64,000 nt of DNA, from the NCBI RefSeq assembly GCF_036641015.1, contig NZ_JAVWFO010000001.1, forward strand, positions 16,596 through 80,595, given 5' to 3'. The DNA comes from Anaerorhabdus sp. Lineage in GTDB: Bacteria; Bacillota_I; Bacilli_A; Erysipelotrichales; Erysipelotrichaceae. This document shows, piece by piece, positions 1 to 9,311 of the stretch; the first letter of the stretch is position 1; each line of letters begins with the position of its first letter. Under the pieces are notes generated by a model that had not been told where the DNA came from, did no database searches, and saw only the letters and a program-made list of their open reading frames with translations. Position numbers and translations under genes: made by a program.

Positions 1-1178
1 AAATCTTTTCCTGCAGCTTTACATGCTTTCGCTAAAGCTTCTTCACTTTTATTCCAAACTTCAATTTCTCCAATATATTTTTCTTCAGGACGAGTACTTA
101 ATTCAATCGAATAATCTAATCCAAATACTCCATAGAAACGATCGATAAACGAAATTAACGATACTACTTCACTCTCAATTTGATCATATGTCATATAAAT
201 ATGAGCATCATCTTGAGTAAAAGTACGAACGCGGAATAAACCATTTAAAGCTCCACTTGCTTCATGTCTATGTACTTGCCCAAGTTCTCCCATACGTAAA
301 GGTAAATCTTTGTATGAGTGTAACCCATTTTTAAATACCAATAGACTTCCTGGACAATTCATTGGTTTAATCGCAAATTCGCGGTCATCTACATCCGAGA
401 TGTACATGTTTTCACGATAGTTAAACCAGTGTCCTGAAACTTCCCATAATTCCTTTGACATCATTATAGGAGTTTTAATGAATACATAGTTTTCCTTTGT
501 ATGTTCATCATACCAAAAACGTTCAAGAATATTACGTACTATCATTCCATTTGGCAAGAAGAAAGGCATACCCGGAGCATATTCACTCATCATGAATAAA
601 TCAAGTTCTCTACCCAATTTTTTGTGATCACGTTTCTTAGCTTCTTCTAATAAATATAAATGTTCATTTAAATCTTCTTCAATTTCGAAACAAATGCCAT
701 AAACGCGTTGAAGCATTTTATTACTAGCATCGCCCTTCCAATAAGCACCAGATACTTTTAATAGTTTGAAATGTTTTAGCTCTTTAACAGATTCAACGTG
801 AGGTCCTCTACATAAATCAACAAATTCACCTTGGCGATAACAAGTAATAACTGTATCATCTTCATTCATGTGTGATATTAAATCGATTTTATAAGGATCA
901 TCTTTAAACATTTCTAAAGCATCACTTTTAGACAATTCTTCTCTTACAATACGTTTACCATCTTTTGAAATTTTCTTCATTTCTTTTTCAATTTTTGCTA
1001 AATCTTCTTCTTTAAGTGATACATCACCTAAATCGATATCATAATAAAATCCATCAGTAATAACTGGTCCAACCCAAAACATTGCATTTGGATATAATCT
1101 CTTTACCGCTTGTGCAAGTAAGTGAGCACAACTGTGATTTAATACATTTAACTTTTCATTTTCTTTAATGTTTATCAT
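1..1178 (-). CDS. thrS: Threonine--tRNA ligase (3' end runs off window; short form without N-terminal TGS domain)
   Basis: Not in ORF track. Hand translation from ATG at 1178 (SD AGGAGG) gives MINIKENEKLNVLNHSCAHLLAQAVKRLYP..GPVITDGFYYD..DLCRGPHV..RDHKKLG..KPMNCPG..RVRTFTQDDAH; Thr T-box upstream. Confidence 0.97.
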   Translation of the reverse strand, partial: MINIKENEKLNVLNHSCAHLLAQAVKRLYPNAMFWVGPVITDGFYYDIDLGDVSLKEEDLAKIEKEMKKISKDGKRIVREELSKSDALEMFKDDPYKIDLISHMNEDDTVITCYRQGEFVDLCRGPHVESVKELKHFKLLKVSGAYWKGDASNKMLQRVYGICFEIEEDLNEHLYLLEEAKKRDHKKLGRELDLFMMSEYAPGMPFFLPNGMIVRNILERFWYDEHTKENYVFIKTPIMMSKELWEVSGHWFNYRENMYISDVDDREFAIKPMNCPGSLLVFKNGLHSYKDLPLRMGELGQVHRHEASGALNGLFRVRTFTQDDAHIYMTYDQIESEVVSLISFIDRFYGVFGLDYSIELSTRPEEKYIGEIEVWNKSEEALAKACKAAGKD

Positions 1179-1196
1179 AAATTTCTCCTCCTAAAC

Positions 1197-1405
1197 AAAT
1201 AAAAAACGCCCTTAACAAAAGGACGTATAACTACGCGGTACCACCTTAATTCATAATCAAAAGATTATGCGCTCGTACATGTAACGGCTGTTAACCGGCA
1301 TCTTTTCAAAGATGCTACTCCCAAGTGGTAATGTGTCAATTCATCAATAACCTTTCACCTACCGGCTATCTCTCTTATCTGAATTTGAAACATCATGTCT
1401 TGTTC
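1197..1405 (-). promoter_or_regulatory. T-box riboswitch (Thr, specifier ACC)
   Basis: Minus strand AATTAAGGTGGTACCGCG T-box (~1234-1251), terminator ACGTCCTT..AAGGGCGTTTTTT, stem I AGAGA..GGTGAAA motif, ACC at 1327-1329. Confidence 0.93.
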
Positions 1406-1420
1406 TATGTATATGTTAAT

Positions 1421-1449
1421 AGTTTAGTCTTTACTTAATCGTTTGTCAA
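1421..1449 (-). promoter_or_regulatory. SigA promoter of thrS leader
   Basis: TTGACA-17 nt-TAAACT on minus strand just upstream of the T-box. Confidence 0.75.
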
Positions 1450-1559
1450 TATTATTGACCTCATTCGTAGATTATTAAGTTAAATTGGAAAGTTACTAAT
1501 ATTACTAACTTGACCTAAATAAAACGATTTAAATGTGAATTAATAATTTAATTATAAAA

Positions 1560-1588
1560 AAGAAAAGAACTGTTAATACTAACAGTTC
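1560..1588 (-). terminator. Intrinsic terminator after ppdK
   Basis: GAACTGTTA/TAACAGTTC 9-bp hairpin followed by a U-rich run on minus strand. Confidence 0.8.
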
Positions 1589-1600
1589 CAATCATATAAT

Positions 1601-2065
1601 TTATTTTTTAGTTACTTTTTTAGCTACAGCCTTCTTAGCTACTGCTTTTTTAGCAACTGGTTTCTTAGCAACTGCTTTTTTAACTACTGCTTTTTTAGCA
1701 ACAGGTTTTTTAGCTTCTGCTTTTTTAGCTACCGGTTTCTTTGCTACAGCTTTTTTAACTACAGCCTTTTTAGCAACAGGTTTTTTTGCTACAGCTTTTT
1801 TAGCAACTGGTTTCTTTGCAACTGCTTTTTTAGCAACTGGTTTTTTTGCTACAGCTTTTTTAGCAACTGCTTTTTTAACTACTGCTTTTTTAGCAACAGG
1901 TTTTTTAGCTTCTGCTTTTTTAGCTACCGGTTTCTTTGCTACAGCTTTTTTAGCTACAGCCTTTTTAGCAACTGGTTTCTTTGCTTCTGCTTTTTTAGCA
2001 ACTGGCTTTTTAGCTACAGCCTTTTTAGCAACAGGTTTTTTAGCTGCTGTTTTCTTTTCTGCCAT
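1601..2065 (-). CDS. Putative nested in-frame histone H1/HctB-like protein (154 aa, [10 protein letters not shown]...)
   Basis: AAAAAGGAGG SD 8 nt before in-frame ATG at 2065; 29 KKxxx pentapeptides, ~40% Lys. Confidence 0.6.
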
Positions 2066-4726
2066 TCTATTAGCCTCCTTTTTAGCATTTTGTTCCAAAT
2101 CACATTTGATTGCAGCTTGAGCTGCAGCCAATCTAGCAATTGGCACACGATATGGAGAACAAGATACATAAGTCAATCCTACACGGTGACAGAACTCAAT
2201 AGAGCTTGGATCCCCTCCATGCTCACCGCATATGCCCAATTTAATATTTGGACGAGTTTGTCTGCCTAATGTTGCAGCCATCTCGACTAACTTACCAACA
2301 CCTTTTTGGTCTAATCTTGCAAAAGGATCTTGCTCATAGATTTTCTTATCATAATAATCTGATAAGAATTGACCAGCGTCATCACGACTAAATCCAAATG
2401 TCATTTGTGTTAAGTCGTTTGTTCCAAAACTGAAGAATTCAGCTTCTGTTGCAATTTCATTTGCAAGTAATGCAGCTCTTGGAATTTCAATCATAGTACC
2501 AACCATATATTTTAGTTTAGCACCAGTTTGTTTAATGATTTCATCAGCTGTTTTAATTACGATATCTTTTACATATTTAAGTTCGTTAACATCACCGATT
2601 AATGGAATCATAATTTCAGGAACAATATTGTATTTTGGATGTTTACTGTTAACATTAATCGCTGCTTCAATAACTGCGCGTGTTTGCATTTCAGCAATTT
2701 CAGGATATGTAACACTTAAACGACATCCACGATGTCCCATCATTGGATTAAATTCATGTAAAGAAGCAATAACTTGTTTTAATTCATTAACAGTCATTTT
2801 CATTTCATGAGCTAAATCTTCAATGTCTTTTTCGTTAGTTGGTAAGAATTCATGTAGAGGTGGATCTAAGTAACGAATAGTTACCGGACGATCTTCCATA
2901 ACTTCATAAATTCCTTCAAAGTCACTTCGTTGCATTGGAAGTAATTTTTCTAATGCAGCACGACGATGAGCCTCATCATCAGAAACTATCATTTCACGCA
3001 TTGCTTTAATACGATTAGCATCAAAGAACATATGTTCTGTACGTACAAGACCAATACCTTGTGCTCCAAATAAGATTGCTTGTCTAGCATCATTTGGTGT
3101 ATCAGCATTAGTTCTAACTTTCAATGTACGACGAGCATCTGCCCATTTCATAAATGTATCAAAGTCACCAGAAATTGATGCAGGAACAGTCTTTATAGCT
3201 TGTCCGTAAATATTTCCTGTAGAACCATCTAAGGAAATGAAGTCACCTTCATGATATTTACTACCAGCCACTTCAAAATAGTGACCCTTTTCATTAATTT
3301 TAATTTCACCACATCCAGATATACAGCAACGACCCATACCACGAGCCACTACTGCAGCATGAGATGTCATACCACCACGTACTGTTAAGATACCTTGAGC
3401 AACATGCATACCTTCAATATCTTCAGGACTTGTTTCTAAACGAACAAGGATAACTTTCTTTCCTTTGTTAGTTTCAGTAATTGCATCCTCTGCAGTAAAT
3501 ACTATTTGACCACATGCAGCTCCTGGAGATGCAGGTAATGCACTAGCAATTGGTTTAACTGCTTGAAGTTCGTAAGAATCAAATTGAGGATGTAATAAAG
3601 AGTCTAATGATTTAGGATCAACCATCATTAATGCTTGATCTTTAGTAATTAGTTTTTCTTTAACCATATCACATGCAATTTTTAAAGCTGCTGCTGCAGT
3701 ACGTTTACCATTACGAGTTTGAAGCATGTACAATGTACCTTCTTCAATAGTAAACTCCATATCTTGCATATCTTTATAATGTTTCTCTAAACGAGAACAA
3801 ATTTGTGTAAATTGAGTATATGCTTTAGGCATAATATTTTTAAGTTCATTAATTGTTTGAGGAGTACGAATACCTGCAACTACGTCTTCCCCTTGAGCAT
3901 TCATTAAGAATTCTCCAAAAAGCTTATTTTCTCCAGTAGCTGGGTTTCTTGTAAATGCAACACCAGTACCGCAATTGTCACCCATGTTTCCAAATACCAT
4001 CGATTGAATATTAACAGCTGTTCCCCATGAACTAGGAATATCATTCATTTTACGATAATAAATTGCACGAGGATTATTCCAAGATTTAAATACTGCTTCA
4101 ACTGATTTAACAAGTTGAATTTTTGCATCTGTTGGGAAATCTTCTTTTAAATTTTCACGATAGAAAACTTTAAACTTAGCTACAAGTTCTTTTAAATCAT
4201 CAGCTGTAAGTTCTGTATCTAACTTAACACGCTTTTCATCTTTCATTTCATCAATTAATTCTTCGAAACGACTCTTTGGTAATCCCATAACAACATCAGC
4301 AAACATTTGGATAAAACGTCGATAGCTATCATAAGCAAATCGTGGATTATTTGTTTTTGCTGCAATTGTTTCAACAACTTCATCATTAATACCTAGATTT
4401 AGAATTGTATCCATCATTCCAGGCATTGATGCACGTGAACCAGATCTTACTGAAACAAGAAGTGGATTATCTTTGCTTCCCATTTTTTTACCAGTAAGTT
4501 TTTCTAATGCTTCTACATTTTGGAAAATTTCTTTTTGAATTGCTTCGCTAATTTTTTCTCCATCATCATAGTAAGCAGTACATGCTTCTGTTGTAATAGT
4601 AAATCCTTGTGGTACAGGCATTCCTAATGTTGTCATTTCTGCAAGATTAGCTCCTTTACCTCCCAAAAGGTTACGCATTGTTCCATTACCTTCTGAGAAT
4701 TTGTAAACGTATTTTTTTGTGGCCAT
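1601..4726 (-). CDS. ppdK: Pyruvate, phosphate dikinase with C-terminal Lys/Ala-rich histone-like extension
   Basis: [38 protein letters not shown] (phospho-His), [19 protein letters not shown]; PPDK-like sequence ends at [10 protein letters not shown], then a short linker and the repeat tail. Confidence 0.98.
1604..2056 (-). repeat. Coding 15-bp tandem repeat ([20 protein letters not shown])
   Basis: ~29 degenerate 15-bp units with synonymous codon variation. Confidence 0.95.
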
Positions 4727-4828
4727 ACTTTCCTCCTATTTAATTATATGAACTTAATTTAAACGGTTACATTTAACTCTATTCTTATAATAAACTATTC
4801 AAAGTTTTTTAACAACCAAAAAATTCAT

Positions 4829-5770
4829 TTAATTTTCATTTAAATGAGCATTAACAAATTCAAAAACTTTTTCAAAATATTTTTTATCTAAAAATGACTC
4901 AGCATGTTTAGATTCTTGGAACGTACATAATTCTTTTTCTGCTGTACATGAATAGAACAAATCAAAGACCATTTCAAATGGTGCAAAGCAATCTAATTCA
5001 CCATGCAAAAATAAAGTTGGTGTATTTGATTGTTTGACTTGTTTAAGTGCATTACCTTCATATAGTGAATAATTCATTTTAGATTTACATAAAAAATTAA
5101 CACCTGGCACTAGTGCACCTAAAGGAACTTTCAAATAATTTTTAATTTGAAATTTTAATAAATCTTCAATTGATGAGTAAGCACAATCTGAAATTGCACA
5201 AACTACATTATCTGGTAAAAATTCACCTGTAGCATTTAATACAGTTGTCGCACCAAGAGAAGTCCCATGCAATACAATCTTCGCATCATTATTTTGTTTG
5301 ATAATAAAATTGATCCAATCAATTAAATCATAATGTTCTTTCCATCCAAGTGTAGTGTATTCCCCTTCACTCTTACCATATGCACGTTGATCAATAATCA
5401 AACAGTTATATCCTTCTTCATAATATTTTTTAGGAATATCTAAAACTTGTGTTCCAAAAAAATCATATGCATGTAGTGAAATTACCCAGTTATTTGATTT
5501 GTCATTGTTAACTTGCACACCACTAAGTTTTAATCCATCATATGAAAGAATCTCTACTTCATGTTTATCAACATTTTCAAACCAAATATCATTGTCTTTC
5601 TTCGTAATTAACGAATTAGAAAATTCCAAATAACTTGGATTTTTTTTGCGTTTAAATACTTTTGTAAAAATATATGCACAAGTTGCACAATATGTTGCAC
5701 CTACTGCAAGCGTTACACCTGCTGTAACAGCTAAAACTTTTCCTACTTTACTTCCATTTTTTTCTGCCAT
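4829..5770 (-). CDS. Alpha/beta hydrolase, N-terminal membrane anchor (YqkD-like)
   Basis: HGTSLG nucleophile motif, DQRAYGKSEG, PTLFLHGELD, C-terminal His. Confidence 0.88.
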   Translation of the reverse strand: MAEKNGSKVGKVLAVTAGVTLAVGATYCATCAYIFTKVFKRKKNPSYLEFSNSLITKKDNDIWFENVDKHEVEILSYDGLKLSGVQVNNDKSNNWVISLHAYDFFGTQVLDIPKKYYEEGYNCLIIDQRAYGKSEGEYTTLGWKEHYDLIDWINFIIKQNNDAKIVLHGTSLGATTVLNATGEFLPDNVVCAISDCAYSSIEDLLKFQIKNYLKVPLGALVPGVNFLCKSKMNYSLYEGNALKQVKQSNTPTLFLHGELDCFAPFEMVFDLFYSCTAEKELCTFQESKHAESFLDKKYFEKVFEFVNAHLNEN

Positions 5771-5826
5771 ACTTTCCTCCGTAAAAAGAAAAGGAGAAGA
5801 CCATAAAAGAATAACAGTTGTTAATT

Positions 5827-5850
5827 CTAATTTAAGTTCTTTCTCCTCAT
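5827..5850 (-). other. Putative leader peptide MRRKNLN
   Basis: AGGTGA SD then ATGAGGAGAAAGAACTTAAATTAG between valS and the hydrolase. Confidence 0.35.
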
Positions 5851-5881
5851 ATTTATCACCTATTAATATTTAATGATAAAT

Positions 5882-8494
5882 TTATTTGGAAGTCAATTCT
5901 TTTAAGCGATTTGATACGATTTCATAGCGATTTTTATAGTTTTCTAACTTATTTTTTTCTTCATCAACTTTATTTGCTGATGCTTTAGAAATAAAGTTTT
6001 CATTTGACAACATTTTTTCGCCACGATTAATTTCTTTTTCTAATGATTCTTTTTCTTTGTTTAATTTTGAAATTTCTTCTTCAACATTGATAACTTCATT
6101 TAAAGGAAGAGATAAAGATCCTCCTTCAATAGGTCTAACCATTAATTCATCATCAATAAATTCAACCCATGTTGCTTTACACATTTTTTCTAAAATTGAT
6201 GCAACTTCCTTATCATATTCTTTGTTTGTTCCACCTAATGATTGAATTATAACACGTAATGGAGTAGATGGTTTTAAATCGTTATCAACTTTTATCTGAC
6301 GTATAGTCGTTATAATTTCAATTAGTTGATTTACTTCAATTGCTTTTTTATCATCTATATCTTTAATTTGTTTTGGCCAAGATGCAACACAAATCGAATC
6401 ATCTGTATTGTGTAAAGATTGATAAATTTCTTCCGTCACAAATGGCATGAATGGATGTAATAATTTAATTATTGCATCTAACATACTTACTAGTGTATTA
6501 ATAGTAGCTAGCTTAGTAGTTTCATTATCACTATTTAATCCAGATTTGCTAAATTCAATATACCAACTACAGAAATCATTCCATACAAAGTTATAAAGTT
6601 CATTACCAACAATTGCAAATTCATATTTATCCATATTTATATTTGTATGTTCAAGTACTTGATTAAATCTTTGTAATATCCAATTATCTGTCATTGAAAG
6701 ATTTTCTAATTTACATTCTAAGGTATTAAATTTTTCTGGTATGTTCATCATTACAAATCGTGATGCATTCCAAATTTTATTTATAAAATTCCACGAAGCT
6801 TCAACTTTACTTGGAACATAACGCATATCTTGTCCAGGAGTAGAATTAGTAGTTAAGAAGAATCTTAATGAATCTACACCATATTCAGAAATTACATCCA
6901 TTGGATCAATTCCATTTCCTAAAGACTTACTCATCTTGCGACCTTGCTCATCACGTATCAATCCATGAATTAAACAATCTTTGAATGGATATGAATTCGT
7001 AAAATGTCTAGCTTGGAAAGCCATACGAGCTACCCAAAAGAAAATTATATCATAGCCAGTTACCATACAGTTTGTTGGATAATAACGTTGCAAATCAGCG
7101 GTATCAGTTGGCCATCCTAATGTGCTAAATGGCCATAATGCACTTGAGAACCATGTATCCAATACATCTTCATCTTGAGTCCAATTTTCAATATCTTTTG
7201 GAGCCTCTAGTCCAACATAAATTTCACCAGTTTCATTATGATACCAAGCAGGTATACGATGACCCCACCATAGTTGTCGTGAAATACACCAATCTTCAAT
7301 ATTTTCTAACCATTGATTAAATGTATTTTCAAATCGTTGTGGATAAAAATTAATTTTTTGTTCTAGATTTTGTTGGTTTTTTAATACGTCATCAGCAAGT
7401 GGTTTCATCTTTACAAACCATTGTTTTGACAAATATGGTTCAACAATAACATCAGTTCTTTCTGAATGTCCAACTTGATGAATATGTTTTTCAATAGATA
7501 CTAAGTTTCCTTCTTTTTCAATACGATCTGTTAAAGCTTTACGACAAACAAAACGATCCATGCCATTAAATTCACCAGCCAATTCATTCATAGTCCCATC
7601 AGGATTCATACAAACGATTTTCGGTAAGTTATGACGTTCAGCAATTTGAAAGTCATTAGGGTCATGTGCTGGTGTACACTTCATTGCTCCTGTACCAAAT
7701 CCAATTTCAATATAATCATCAGCAATAATTGGTAAAGCTTCTCCATTTGCAGGGTTTATTGCATGTTTACCAATTAAATGTTTATATTTCTCATCTTCTG
7801 GATGAACAACTACACAAACATCACCAAACATAGTTTCAGGACGAGTAGTTGCAACATTAAATGAATCATTAGTTTCAACTACCTTATAGTTAAATGTATA
7901 AAAAGCCCCTTCAACTTCTTTATGAATTACTTCAATATTACTTAGTGCTGTTTTAGCTTTCGGATCCCAGTTAATTATACGTTCACCTTGGTAAATTAAG
8001 CCTTCATTGTATAAATCACAGAATACCTTTGTAACAGCTTTATTAAGACCTTCATCTAGTGTAAAACGTTCACGTGAATAGTCAACAGAGTTACCAAGTT
8101 TTGCCCATTGTTCACGGATATGACCTGCATATTCTTCCTTCCATTGCCAAGCACGATCCAAGAATTTTTCTCTTCCTAAATCATAACGACTAATACCTTC
8201 ATCTTTAAGTCTTGCATCAACTTTTGCTTGAGTTGCGATTCCTGCATGATCCATACCAGGAAGATATAACATGTCAAAACCTTGTAGTCGTTTATAACGT
8301 GAAATAATATCTTGTAAAGTATTATCCCAAGCATGTCCTAAATGTAATTTGCCTGTTACATTTGGTGGTGGTATTACAATTGTAAAAGGATCTTTACTTT
8401 TATCACCAGCTTTAAAATATCCTTTTTCAACCCATTTATTGTACTTGTCAGTCTCTACTTCAAGATGATTATACTTTGCATTTAATTCTTTCAT
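5882..8494 (-). CDS. valS: Valine--tRNA ligase
   Basis: PPPNVTGKLHLGH (HIGH), WCISRQLWWGH, DVLDTWFSS, KMSKS, C-terminal coiled arm. Confidence 0.99.
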   Translation of the reverse strand: MKELNAKYNHLEVETDKYNKWVEKGYFKAGDKSKDPFTIVIPPPNVTGKLHLGHAWDNTLQDIISRYKRLQGFDMLYLPGMDHAGIATQAKVDARLKDEGISRYDLGREKFLDRAWQWKEEYAGHIREQWAKLGNSVDYSRERFTLDEGLNKAVTKVFCDLYNEGLIYQGERIINWDPKAKTALSNIEVIHKEVEGAFYTFNYKVVETNDSFNVATTRPETMFGDVCVVVHPEDEKYKHLIGKHAINPANGEALPIIADDYIEIGFGTGAMKCTPAHDPNDFQIAERHNLPKIVCMNPDGTMNELAGEFNGMDRFVCRKALTDRIEKEGNLVSIEKHIHQVGHSERTDVIVEPYLSKQWFVKMKPLADDVLKNQQNLEQKINFYPQRFENTFNQWLENIEDWCISRQLWWGHRIPAWYHNETGEIYVGLEAPKDIENWTQDEDVLDTWFSSALWPFSTLGWPTDTADLQRYYPTNCMVTGYDIIFFWVARMAFQARHFTNSYPFKDCLIHGLIRDEQGRKMSKSLGNGIDPMDVISEYGVDSLRFFLTTNSTPGQDMRYVPSKVEASWNFINKIWNASRFVMMNIPEKFNTLECKLENLSMTDNWILQRFNQVLEHTNINMDKYEFAIVGNELYNFVWNDFCSWYIEFSKSGLNSDNETTKLATINTLVSMLDAIIKLLHPFMPFVTEEIYQSLHNTDDSICVASWPKQIKDIDDKKAIEVNQLIEIITTIRQIKVDNDLKPSTPLRVIIQSLGGTNKEYDKEVASILEKMCKATWVEFIDDELMVRPIEGGSLSLPLNEVINVEEEISKLNKEKESLEKEINRGEKMLSNENFISKASANKVDEEKNKLENYKNRYEIVSNRLKELTSK

Positions 8495-9061: not shown

Positions 9062-9280
9062 AATATAAAAACGCCCTTTAATATAAAAGGACGTTAAATT
9101 ACGCGGTACCACCTTAATTCATAGTATAAAACTATGCACTCAAACTTTTAACGCAAGTATACGGATTCTCCTATTTACTTAGAGAACCAACTCATAGACT
9201 ACTATTCAATAGTTATGCGAGTCTTTTTCAGCAACCAAGACTTCTCTATTTGTCACTAACTATTTACTTCCTTCTAATCA
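9062..9280 (-). promoter_or_regulatory. T-box riboswitch (Val, specifier GTA)
   Basis: AATTAAGGTGGTACCGCG (~9102-9119), terminator ACGTCCTT..AAGGGCGTTTTT, stem I AGAGA..GCTGAAA motif, GTA at 9200-9202. Confidence 0.92.
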
Positions 9281-9311
9281 AAGTTATTAAGATAATTTTA
9301 TCAATCTATAG

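Follow-up and report, generated by a model that had tools for sequence, protein, structure and literature searches.

Why does the gene for a central metabolic enzyme run on into a histone-like sequence, and is that sequence made only as part of the enzyme? The question arises from a 64,000-nucleotide stretch of an Anaerorhabdus sp. genome (NCBI RefSeq assembly GCF_036641015.1, contig NZ_JAVWFO010000001.1, positions 16,596 to 80,595), which we call the window and whose own coordinates are used throughout. Anaerorhabdus is a bacterium of gut and wastewater. On the minus strand of the window, from 4726 to 1601, a single open reading frame (ORF) of 1041 codons encodes pyruvate, phosphate dikinase (PPDK), an enzyme of central glycolytic and gluconeogenic metabolism, and continues into a polycationic C-terminal tail. 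The fused ORF is conserved. On balance, we favor a reading of its sequence in which it would yield a tethered enzyme and probably also a free basic protein of 16 kDa.

The PPDK core (residues 1–874; 2105..4726, minus strand) starts at an ATG at 4724–4726. It has the three-domain architecture of PPDK (PPDK_N, PEP-utilizers swivel and PEP-utilizers_C; EC 2.7.9.1), that is, AMP/ATP-binding, phospho-histidine swivel and phosphoenolpyruvate (PEP)-binding domains, with Pfam matches to PF01326, PF00391 and PF02896 (E-values 2e-60, 1.6e-23 and 1.7e-79). Core residues 5–873 align with the solved Clostridium symbiosum PPDK (1KBL/1DIK; 1,344 bits). Two catalytic motifs are intact in the translation: GGMTSHAAV, carrying the catalytic His of the swivel domain, and GICGEHGG, carrying the Cys and His of the PEP-binding domain. 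The C, E, H and G of GICGEHGG are invariant in an alignment of PPDK homologues. From these motifs and domains, the full-length product is predicted to be an intact PPDK.

The core is followed by a linker of 13 codons (2066..2104, minus strand), in our reading a once intergenic spacer that is now translated. Within the genus it opens with TGT or TAT, either of which is one base off a stop. Then comes a tail of 154 residues (1604..2065, minus strand), recognized from Pfam, Tandem Repeats Finder and the translation as a Lys/Ala/Val/Pro repeat of KKxxx pentapeptides, and closed by a TAA stop codon (1601..1603, minus strand). A first-pass annotation, made from the letters of the window, had described the end of PPDK, the 13-residue linker and the 154-residue tail with 62 Lys; every detail of this anatomy holds on re-reading.

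The tail is strongly basic, with 62 Lys and 4 Glu, a net charge of +58, a mass of 16.0 kDa and an isoelectric point (pI) of 11.1. The whole protein (114.7 kDa) has a computed pI of 9.5, and the core alone 5.9. At the DNA level, Tandem Repeats Finder resolves the tail as a 15/30/45/75-nucleotide tandem array over 1615–2053. The tail alone scores 95.3 bits against Pfam HC2 (PF07382; curated cut-off 40). It also matches Extensin_1 weakly, and as a low-complexity repeat it offers no non-repeat anchor for alignment to HctB. The Pfam matches include no linker-histone (GH1 winged-helix) domain; with eukaryotic linker histone H1 it has tail-like composition alone in common. AlphaFold, given an alignment of 30 tailed PPDK C-termini, models the core confidently and extends the last PPDK helix across the linker as far as residue 895 or so. 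The predicted local distance difference test score (pLDDT) stays below 50 between about residue 906 and residue 1041, and the tail is predicted to be disordered.

Could the fusion be an artefact of assembly or sequencing, with two genes really separated by a stop or frameshift? The draft genome consists of 103 contigs, and short-read assemblies break within the repeat. The same in-frame junction is nevertheless present in all five Anaerorhabdus species (5/5), with differing tail lengths, and in four related uncultured lineages (L035, L036, L037 and L129), the work of different assembling groups. The protein of the cultured species A. furcosa that NCBI names PPDK (P0003) is encoded exactly by locus L002 and contains the junction. 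Contigs from two other studies, of wastewater and manure, cross the junction without gaps (X3 record 21, 2009–2413; X4 record 28, 1916–2407); in this contig-coverage comparison, uncovered bins within the repeat carry no meaning. The first-pass annotation had asked whether reads might reveal a stop codon in the linker. With an open junction in all of these sources, assembly error is excluded as an explanation of the fusion, and the chance of such an artefact is negligible.

The neighborhood is shared as well. In L035, L036 and L037, a valS or class-I synthetase gene and a hydrolase gene lie 5' of ppdK, and in L035 and L036 thrS also lies 3' of it; the L129 contig is too short to display neighboring genes. 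The repeat itself is hard to assemble: in one genus genome (G004, locus L005) a run of N falls inside it and the frame is shifted past the gap, and short-read contigs of other studies stop within the array (in the region of window 1694–1751). Tail lengths in draft genomes may be underestimated, such as the 59-residue extension in P0007.

The second half of our question turns on the linker. Its codons spell a Shine-Dalgarno (SD) sequence, AAAAAGGAGG (2074..2083, minus strand), followed after an 8-nucleotide spacer by an in-frame ATG (2063..2065, minus strand) for Met888, the first codon of the tail. The SD-like site exactly 8 nucleotides 5' of an in-frame ATG had been noticed in the first pass, and we read the same. 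Nested genes typically carry a strong SD 5–10 nucleotides before an in-frame start, and this site lies in that range. The 1,018 ORFs of 250 codons or more in the Anaerorhabdus genome hold 8,824 internal in-frame ATGs, of which 16 are preceded by GGAGG at 4–11 nucleotides and just two by AAGGAGG. The majority of the 16 GGAGG sites are Gly-Gly codons, and the ppdK site alone lies at a domain border.

The internal ATG is kept in the five species and the four uncultured lineages. AAGGAG(G) and ATG are fixed in eight loci (L001–L005, L036, L037 and L129) with core identity to the window of 67–84%, while the 8–9 nucleotides between them differ lineage by lineage; apart from the SD and ATG, the linker is variable. 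In L035 the residues have changed to K-R-G, and a GAGG-type site still stands about 10 nucleotides before the ATG. Of the codons that encode the same residue in L001 and L037, 68% differ, which puts silent sites near saturation. In the ppdK-tail gene of the AT-rich lineages, AAG makes up 16% of Lys codons and GAG 12% of Glu codons, so roughly one K-E pair in 50 would be written AAGGAG. The SD and start are thus conserved beyond what the protein needs, in a small number of independent lineages. Prediction of RNA structure over the junction gave nothing significant (z −0.25). Because the SD and ATG are fixed across a variable spacer at 67–84% core identity, the start signals look selected rather than mere leftovers, which favors two products, and we lean toward Met888 being used as an internal start.

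Where did the tail come from? In a tree of 145 PPDK cores, the window PPDK falls in a supported clade of three parts. The first comprises Anaerorhabdus and two uncultured lineages. The second joins a short-tailed, Met-less group with a tailless sister genus, G008; in this second part, ppdK lies near atp and rbfA-infB genes. The third comprises further uncultured lineages, two of which have a junction of the type C-D-...-K-K-E-x-x-x-M. In G008, ppdK is located elsewhere in the genome and ends without a tail, and a free-standing gene for a 99-residue Lys/Ala/Pro repeat protein lies between valS and mscL-thrS (L039:2607–2906, plus strand). This gene has its own AT-rich intergenic region upstream and scores 37.8 bits against HC2, just below the cut-off of 40. 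From the G008 and Anaerorhabdus loci, the tail module occupies the same chromosomal position in both, as a separate gene in the one and fused in the other.

The fused junction resembles a stop, spacer, SD and start minus the stop. The joining of ppdK to a once-separate H1-like gene is well supported by these sequence features, because the spacer is translated, the SD and ATG are retained, and a sister genus has a syntenic free counterpart. In an ancestor of Anaerorhabdus and some related uncultured Erysipelotrichales, the ppdK stop would have been lost, so that the frame continued across the short spacer and on into the next gene, a small one encoding a polycationic protein of the histone-H1/HC2 kind. 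The first-pass annotation had offered a recent fusion of two adjacent genes by stop-codon loss as an alternative. The joining agrees with the spacer, SD, ATG and G008 counterpart; its recency does not stand, as the fusion predates the genus and is also found in the related uncultured lineages. A protein search for free-standing relatives of the tail gave six matches, all of them Lys-rich regions of other proteins, and no ppdK-adjacent orthologue. Lys-rich HC2-type regions are also seen fused to XRE-type helix-turn-helix, AHSA1/START, SWIB and DksA-type zinc finger domains in metagenomic proteins (P0137, P0139, P0140 and P0142).

Several observations weigh against our reading. The codons for Lys, Glu and Gly are rich in purines, which makes weak SD-like strings easy to come by, and K-K-E could have been retained for protein reasons. 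The junction sites of L042–L045 are merely moderate, and L046 has none. The junction Met has been lost in P0108 and P0039 of the same clade, and P0057, P0083, P0097, P0098 and P0104 are short-tailed and have no Met; the internal start is therefore dispensable in those sublineages. The five species are close kin, and their agreement represents few independent events. Ribosome traffic along the ORF may depress internal initiation. The HC2 match of the tail, being between low-complexity sequences, may be purely compositional, and the separate gene of G008 could be either ancestral or the result of a later fission.

Some of these points are what one would expect if only the 115-kDa fusion protein were made and the internal SD and ATG were the unused relic of an absorbed gene. 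Both Met and SD have been lost in some sublineages, purine-rich Lys/Glu coding favors SD-like strings, and conservation looks greater than it is because the five species are so closely related. A relic is harder to reconcile with an SD and ATG that stay fixed beside a variable spacer down to 67% core identity, with synonymous sites near saturation, with an SD site built from rare codons, and with the retention of an SD-like site in L035 after its residues had changed. Also against a relic, a free-standing pure H1-like gene was not found in the Anaerorhabdus genomes, whereas G008 has one. We regard a fusion protein as sole product as possible but doubtful. An RNA-labelled sequencing run, X17, matches some of the stretch, at 90–95% likeness, and is uninformative on starts or levels.

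How widespread are such tails? In 35 other genera of Erysipelotrichales, a PPDK tail was not found; their PPDK ends 2–7 residues past ...AAIK. A Lys-rich ORF beside ppdK was likewise absent from the 35 genera, and a search of 25 sister-genus loci gave nothing. We also scanned species-representative genomes with a core-plus-tail alignment and took the best 80 PPDK loci by core similarity, of which 79 were readable, mostly from Bacillota. PPDK is tailless in 77 of the 79 and has a short Lys-rich tail in the other two; none of the 79 has a Lys-rich ORF downstream or an unfused ppdK-H1 adjacency. A search scored on the tail region instead found more than 100 PPDKs of 900–1170 residues with Lys/Ala-rich C-terminal extensions, named sources being Treponema, Spirochaetia, Verrucomicrobia, Fibrobacter and Melioribacteraceae. 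Extensions past the core range from 59 to 198 residues. The first-pass statement that PPDK normally has no such tail is right for 77 of the 79 loci and for the 35 genera, and needs the amendment that Lys-rich tails recur elsewhere. Our literature searches found no paper on Lys-rich PPDK tails. A different extension is seen in P0112–P0120 (945 residues), a tight group of Bacillota-type PPDKs present on many contigs: it has 74 residues, is Glu/Lys/Ala-rich and probably helical, and is not polycationic.

The start-like junction also has a wider counterpart. Since linkers themselves hold Lys, we followed Met density along the extensions of 107 tailed PPDKs. Met occurs at 1.64 per 100 residues at extension positions 5–25 and at 0.2–0.4 beyond, making it 4–8 times denser near the junction. 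A junction-zone Met is present in 11 of 28 clusters (75% identity), and Ala is the next residue in 21 of 35 cases. Composition changes at this Met: before it, residues are 17% Lys, 41% Ser/Thr/Asn/Gln and 11% acidic, and after it 35% Lys, 26% Ala and 3% acidic. A distant Gram-negative-type lineage with ppdK beside lpxD (L038) has AAGGAGG, 8 nucleotides and ATG at its junction. Four other lineages have weaker purine-rich junction sites, and one has none. The pattern suggests that many PPDK tails may have begun as downstream genes; an unfused adjacent ppdK and H1-like gene was not found in other phyla.

What would the products do? The full-length product would be a 115-kDa PPDK in which the last helix leads on to 154 residues predicted to be disordered, with a net charge of +58. 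By analogy with known tails, our best guess, and the most likely role, is that the charged tail tethers the enzyme to the nucleoid, or else to RNA and ribosomes. Ribosomes would also start at the retained internal SD and ATG and make a free 16-kDa basic protein, the counterpart of the separate G008 gene product. The genome also encodes HU.

A disordered chain of net charge +58 should bind any polyanion, and the tail might instead target another polyanion or surface, for example polyphosphate granules or acidic membrane lipids. PPDK uses phosphate and pyrophosphate (PPi), and AlgP, whose tail is equally long and similarly charged, is located on polyphosphate granules (PMC9239181). We consider such a target unlikely. 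None of the five Anaerorhabdus genomes (84–96% complete) yielded a PPK1 or PPK2 polyphosphate kinase, which makes polyphosphate an improbable target; no other polyanion comes near DNA and RNA in abundance; and KPAA-type tails bind DNA and RNA where tested.

Low-complexity repeats readily grow and shrink, the extensions vary from 59 to 198 residues, and some relatives are very short-tailed or tailless, all of which would fit a functionless read-through product that is tolerated because it is disordered. Such a neutral tail is very unlikely, however. Wherever it is assembled, the repeat has stayed in frame and Lys-rich despite length changes, at 67–84% core identity; like tails arose or persist on PPDKs of many distant lineages; and a tail of net charge +58 would hardly leave the enzyme unaffected.

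A bolder version of the tethered-enzyme reading is that ppdK is a nested two-product gene, one that supplies PPDK tethered to the nucleoid or to RNA and, at a fixed ratio to it, a free H1-like basic protein, and that PPDK and H1-like proteins are coupled across bacteria. We rate this as rather unlikely. If it is true, the start-codon relics at PPDK-tail junctions of unrelated phyla would reflect a functional coupling, for example the placing of an enzyme that converts AMP, PPi and PEP to ATP near transcription and tRNA charging. Both of these processes release PPi and AMP. Recycling of PPi and AMP in their vicinity, as raised in the first pass, is an attractive idea because ppdK lies between valS and thrS.

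The genes of this neighborhood, in the order valS, alpha/beta-hydrolase, ppdK-tail and thrS, lie on one strand (window 3–8494, minus strand). A valS gene is also found 5' of ppdK in several sister genera (L009, L013, L016 and L030), and from this recurrence PPDK is habitually encoded beside an aminoacyl-tRNA synthetase gene in the family. A terminator-like hairpin followed by a T run (1566..1589, minus strand) lies 11 nucleotides past the ppdK stop, and a T-box leader (1216–1416, minus strand) lies directly 5' of thrS. Since thrS has its own leader and a hairpin follows the stop, coding sequence in the ppdK transcript ends with the tail. Another T-box leader (9084–9290, minus strand) is placed about 590 nucleotides 5' of the valS start, which leaves space for something between. 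A promoter scan gave 17 promoter-like matches against 16.1 in shuffled sequences, with no excess. One internal candidate (2176–2147) falls in the conserved ...VSCSPYRVP... codons, and we found no support for it as a promoter. A pyruvate kinase gene is present in the genome, which rules out PPDK as the sole enzyme between PEP and pyruvate.

Several proteins of the genus carry Lys-rich regions, given that the primary sigma factor RpoD has one besides the PPDK tail. RpoD (contig C33:7884–9845, L033) carries at its N terminus a Lys-rich extension, some 230 residues of Lys/Val/Pro/Thr repeats, that is 54–64% like the PPDK tail; this extension is also found in three other genomes (G003:C3, G002:C11 and G001:C92). 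A protein of about 145–153 residues (C9:26045–26503, L034; G001 homologue at L040:2316–2777, minus strand) begins MAEKKETK..., like the tail at its internal start. Its first half, of about 60 residues, is Lys-rich, and its conserved Cys-containing C-terminal domain has no Pfam family; HC2 and DUF6465 score under their cut-offs.

Proteins of the nucleoid and of granules are known to bear H1-like polycationic tails. Our literature searches found no paper that places them on a core glycolytic or gluconeogenic enzyme. Should the tail indeed anchor PPDK on DNA or RNA, bacteria would have a simple means of localizing energy metabolism, and if the internal start is used, one gene would give both an enzyme and a chromatin-like protein. 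The case is tractable: A. furcosa is cultured, the origin of the fusion can be traced, and the sister genus provides a natural unfused control. H1-like tails and nested starts are already known; what is added here is the junction evidence, the syntenic free counterpart and a cultured host.

Compared with known systems, the core is a canonical bacterial PPDK. It aligns end to end with the C. symbiosum enzyme (1KBL, 1DIK), and both share all three domains and the catalytic motifs. Solved PPDKs and most relatives stop a few residues past ...AAIK, whereas the Anaerorhabdus protein runs 167 residues further.

The tail resembles two kinds of protein. Chlamydia Hc2/HctB is a Lys/Ala-rich protein of pentamer-type repeats, like the tail by its HC2 match, and a 16-kDa protein made on its own would be similar to a small nucleoid-condensing protein. 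Anaerorhabdus differs in having no developmental cycle and in its tail being joined to an enzyme. In Pseudomonas, AlgP and PhaF have a disordered C-terminal domain of about 150 residues made of short Lys/Ala/Pro(Val) repeats; the ppdK tail likewise is long, repetitive, highly positively charged and predicted to be disordered. The KPAA tail of AlgP has 154 residues and binds DNA, with a net charge of +55 for the whole protein, which localizes to polyphosphate granules (PMC9239181), and the KPAA region of PhaF binds RNA (PMC12818456). Those tails bind DNA (PhaF also RNA) and tether cargo to the nucleoid. The repeat unit of the ppdK tail is the KKxxx pentapeptide rather than KPAA, and its N-terminal partner is a 97-kDa metabolic enzyme rather than a small helical or phasin domain. 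No polyphosphate kinase was found in Anaerorhabdus. The first pass had compared the tail with HctB and AlgP; the likeness to them lies in composition and repeat type (HC2, 95.3 bits).

Nested in-frame genes with an internal start include E. coli IF2 alpha/beta, the long and short forms of CheA, ClpB, and phage lambda C/Nu3. In these, as in ppdK-tail, an ORF contains a strong SD and ATG that lie at a domain border and are conserved in relatives, and these genes give one full-length and one C-terminal product, as predicted for ppdK-tail. Genome-wide cases come from a Ribo-RET study (doi 10.1101/520783). Known nested starts evolved inside a gene, whereas the start in ppdK-tail would have been inherited from a formerly separate one.

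A further likeness is to the tailed PPDKs of other phyla, which are the same enzyme with the same kind of polycationic disordered tail, recurring across the PPDK tree. Beside them Anaerorhabdus is a Bacillota case, includes a cultured species and has one of the longer tails. To our knowledge, it is the first tailed PPDK with a documented SD-ATG junction and a syntenic free counterpart, and hence with a traceable fusion origin.

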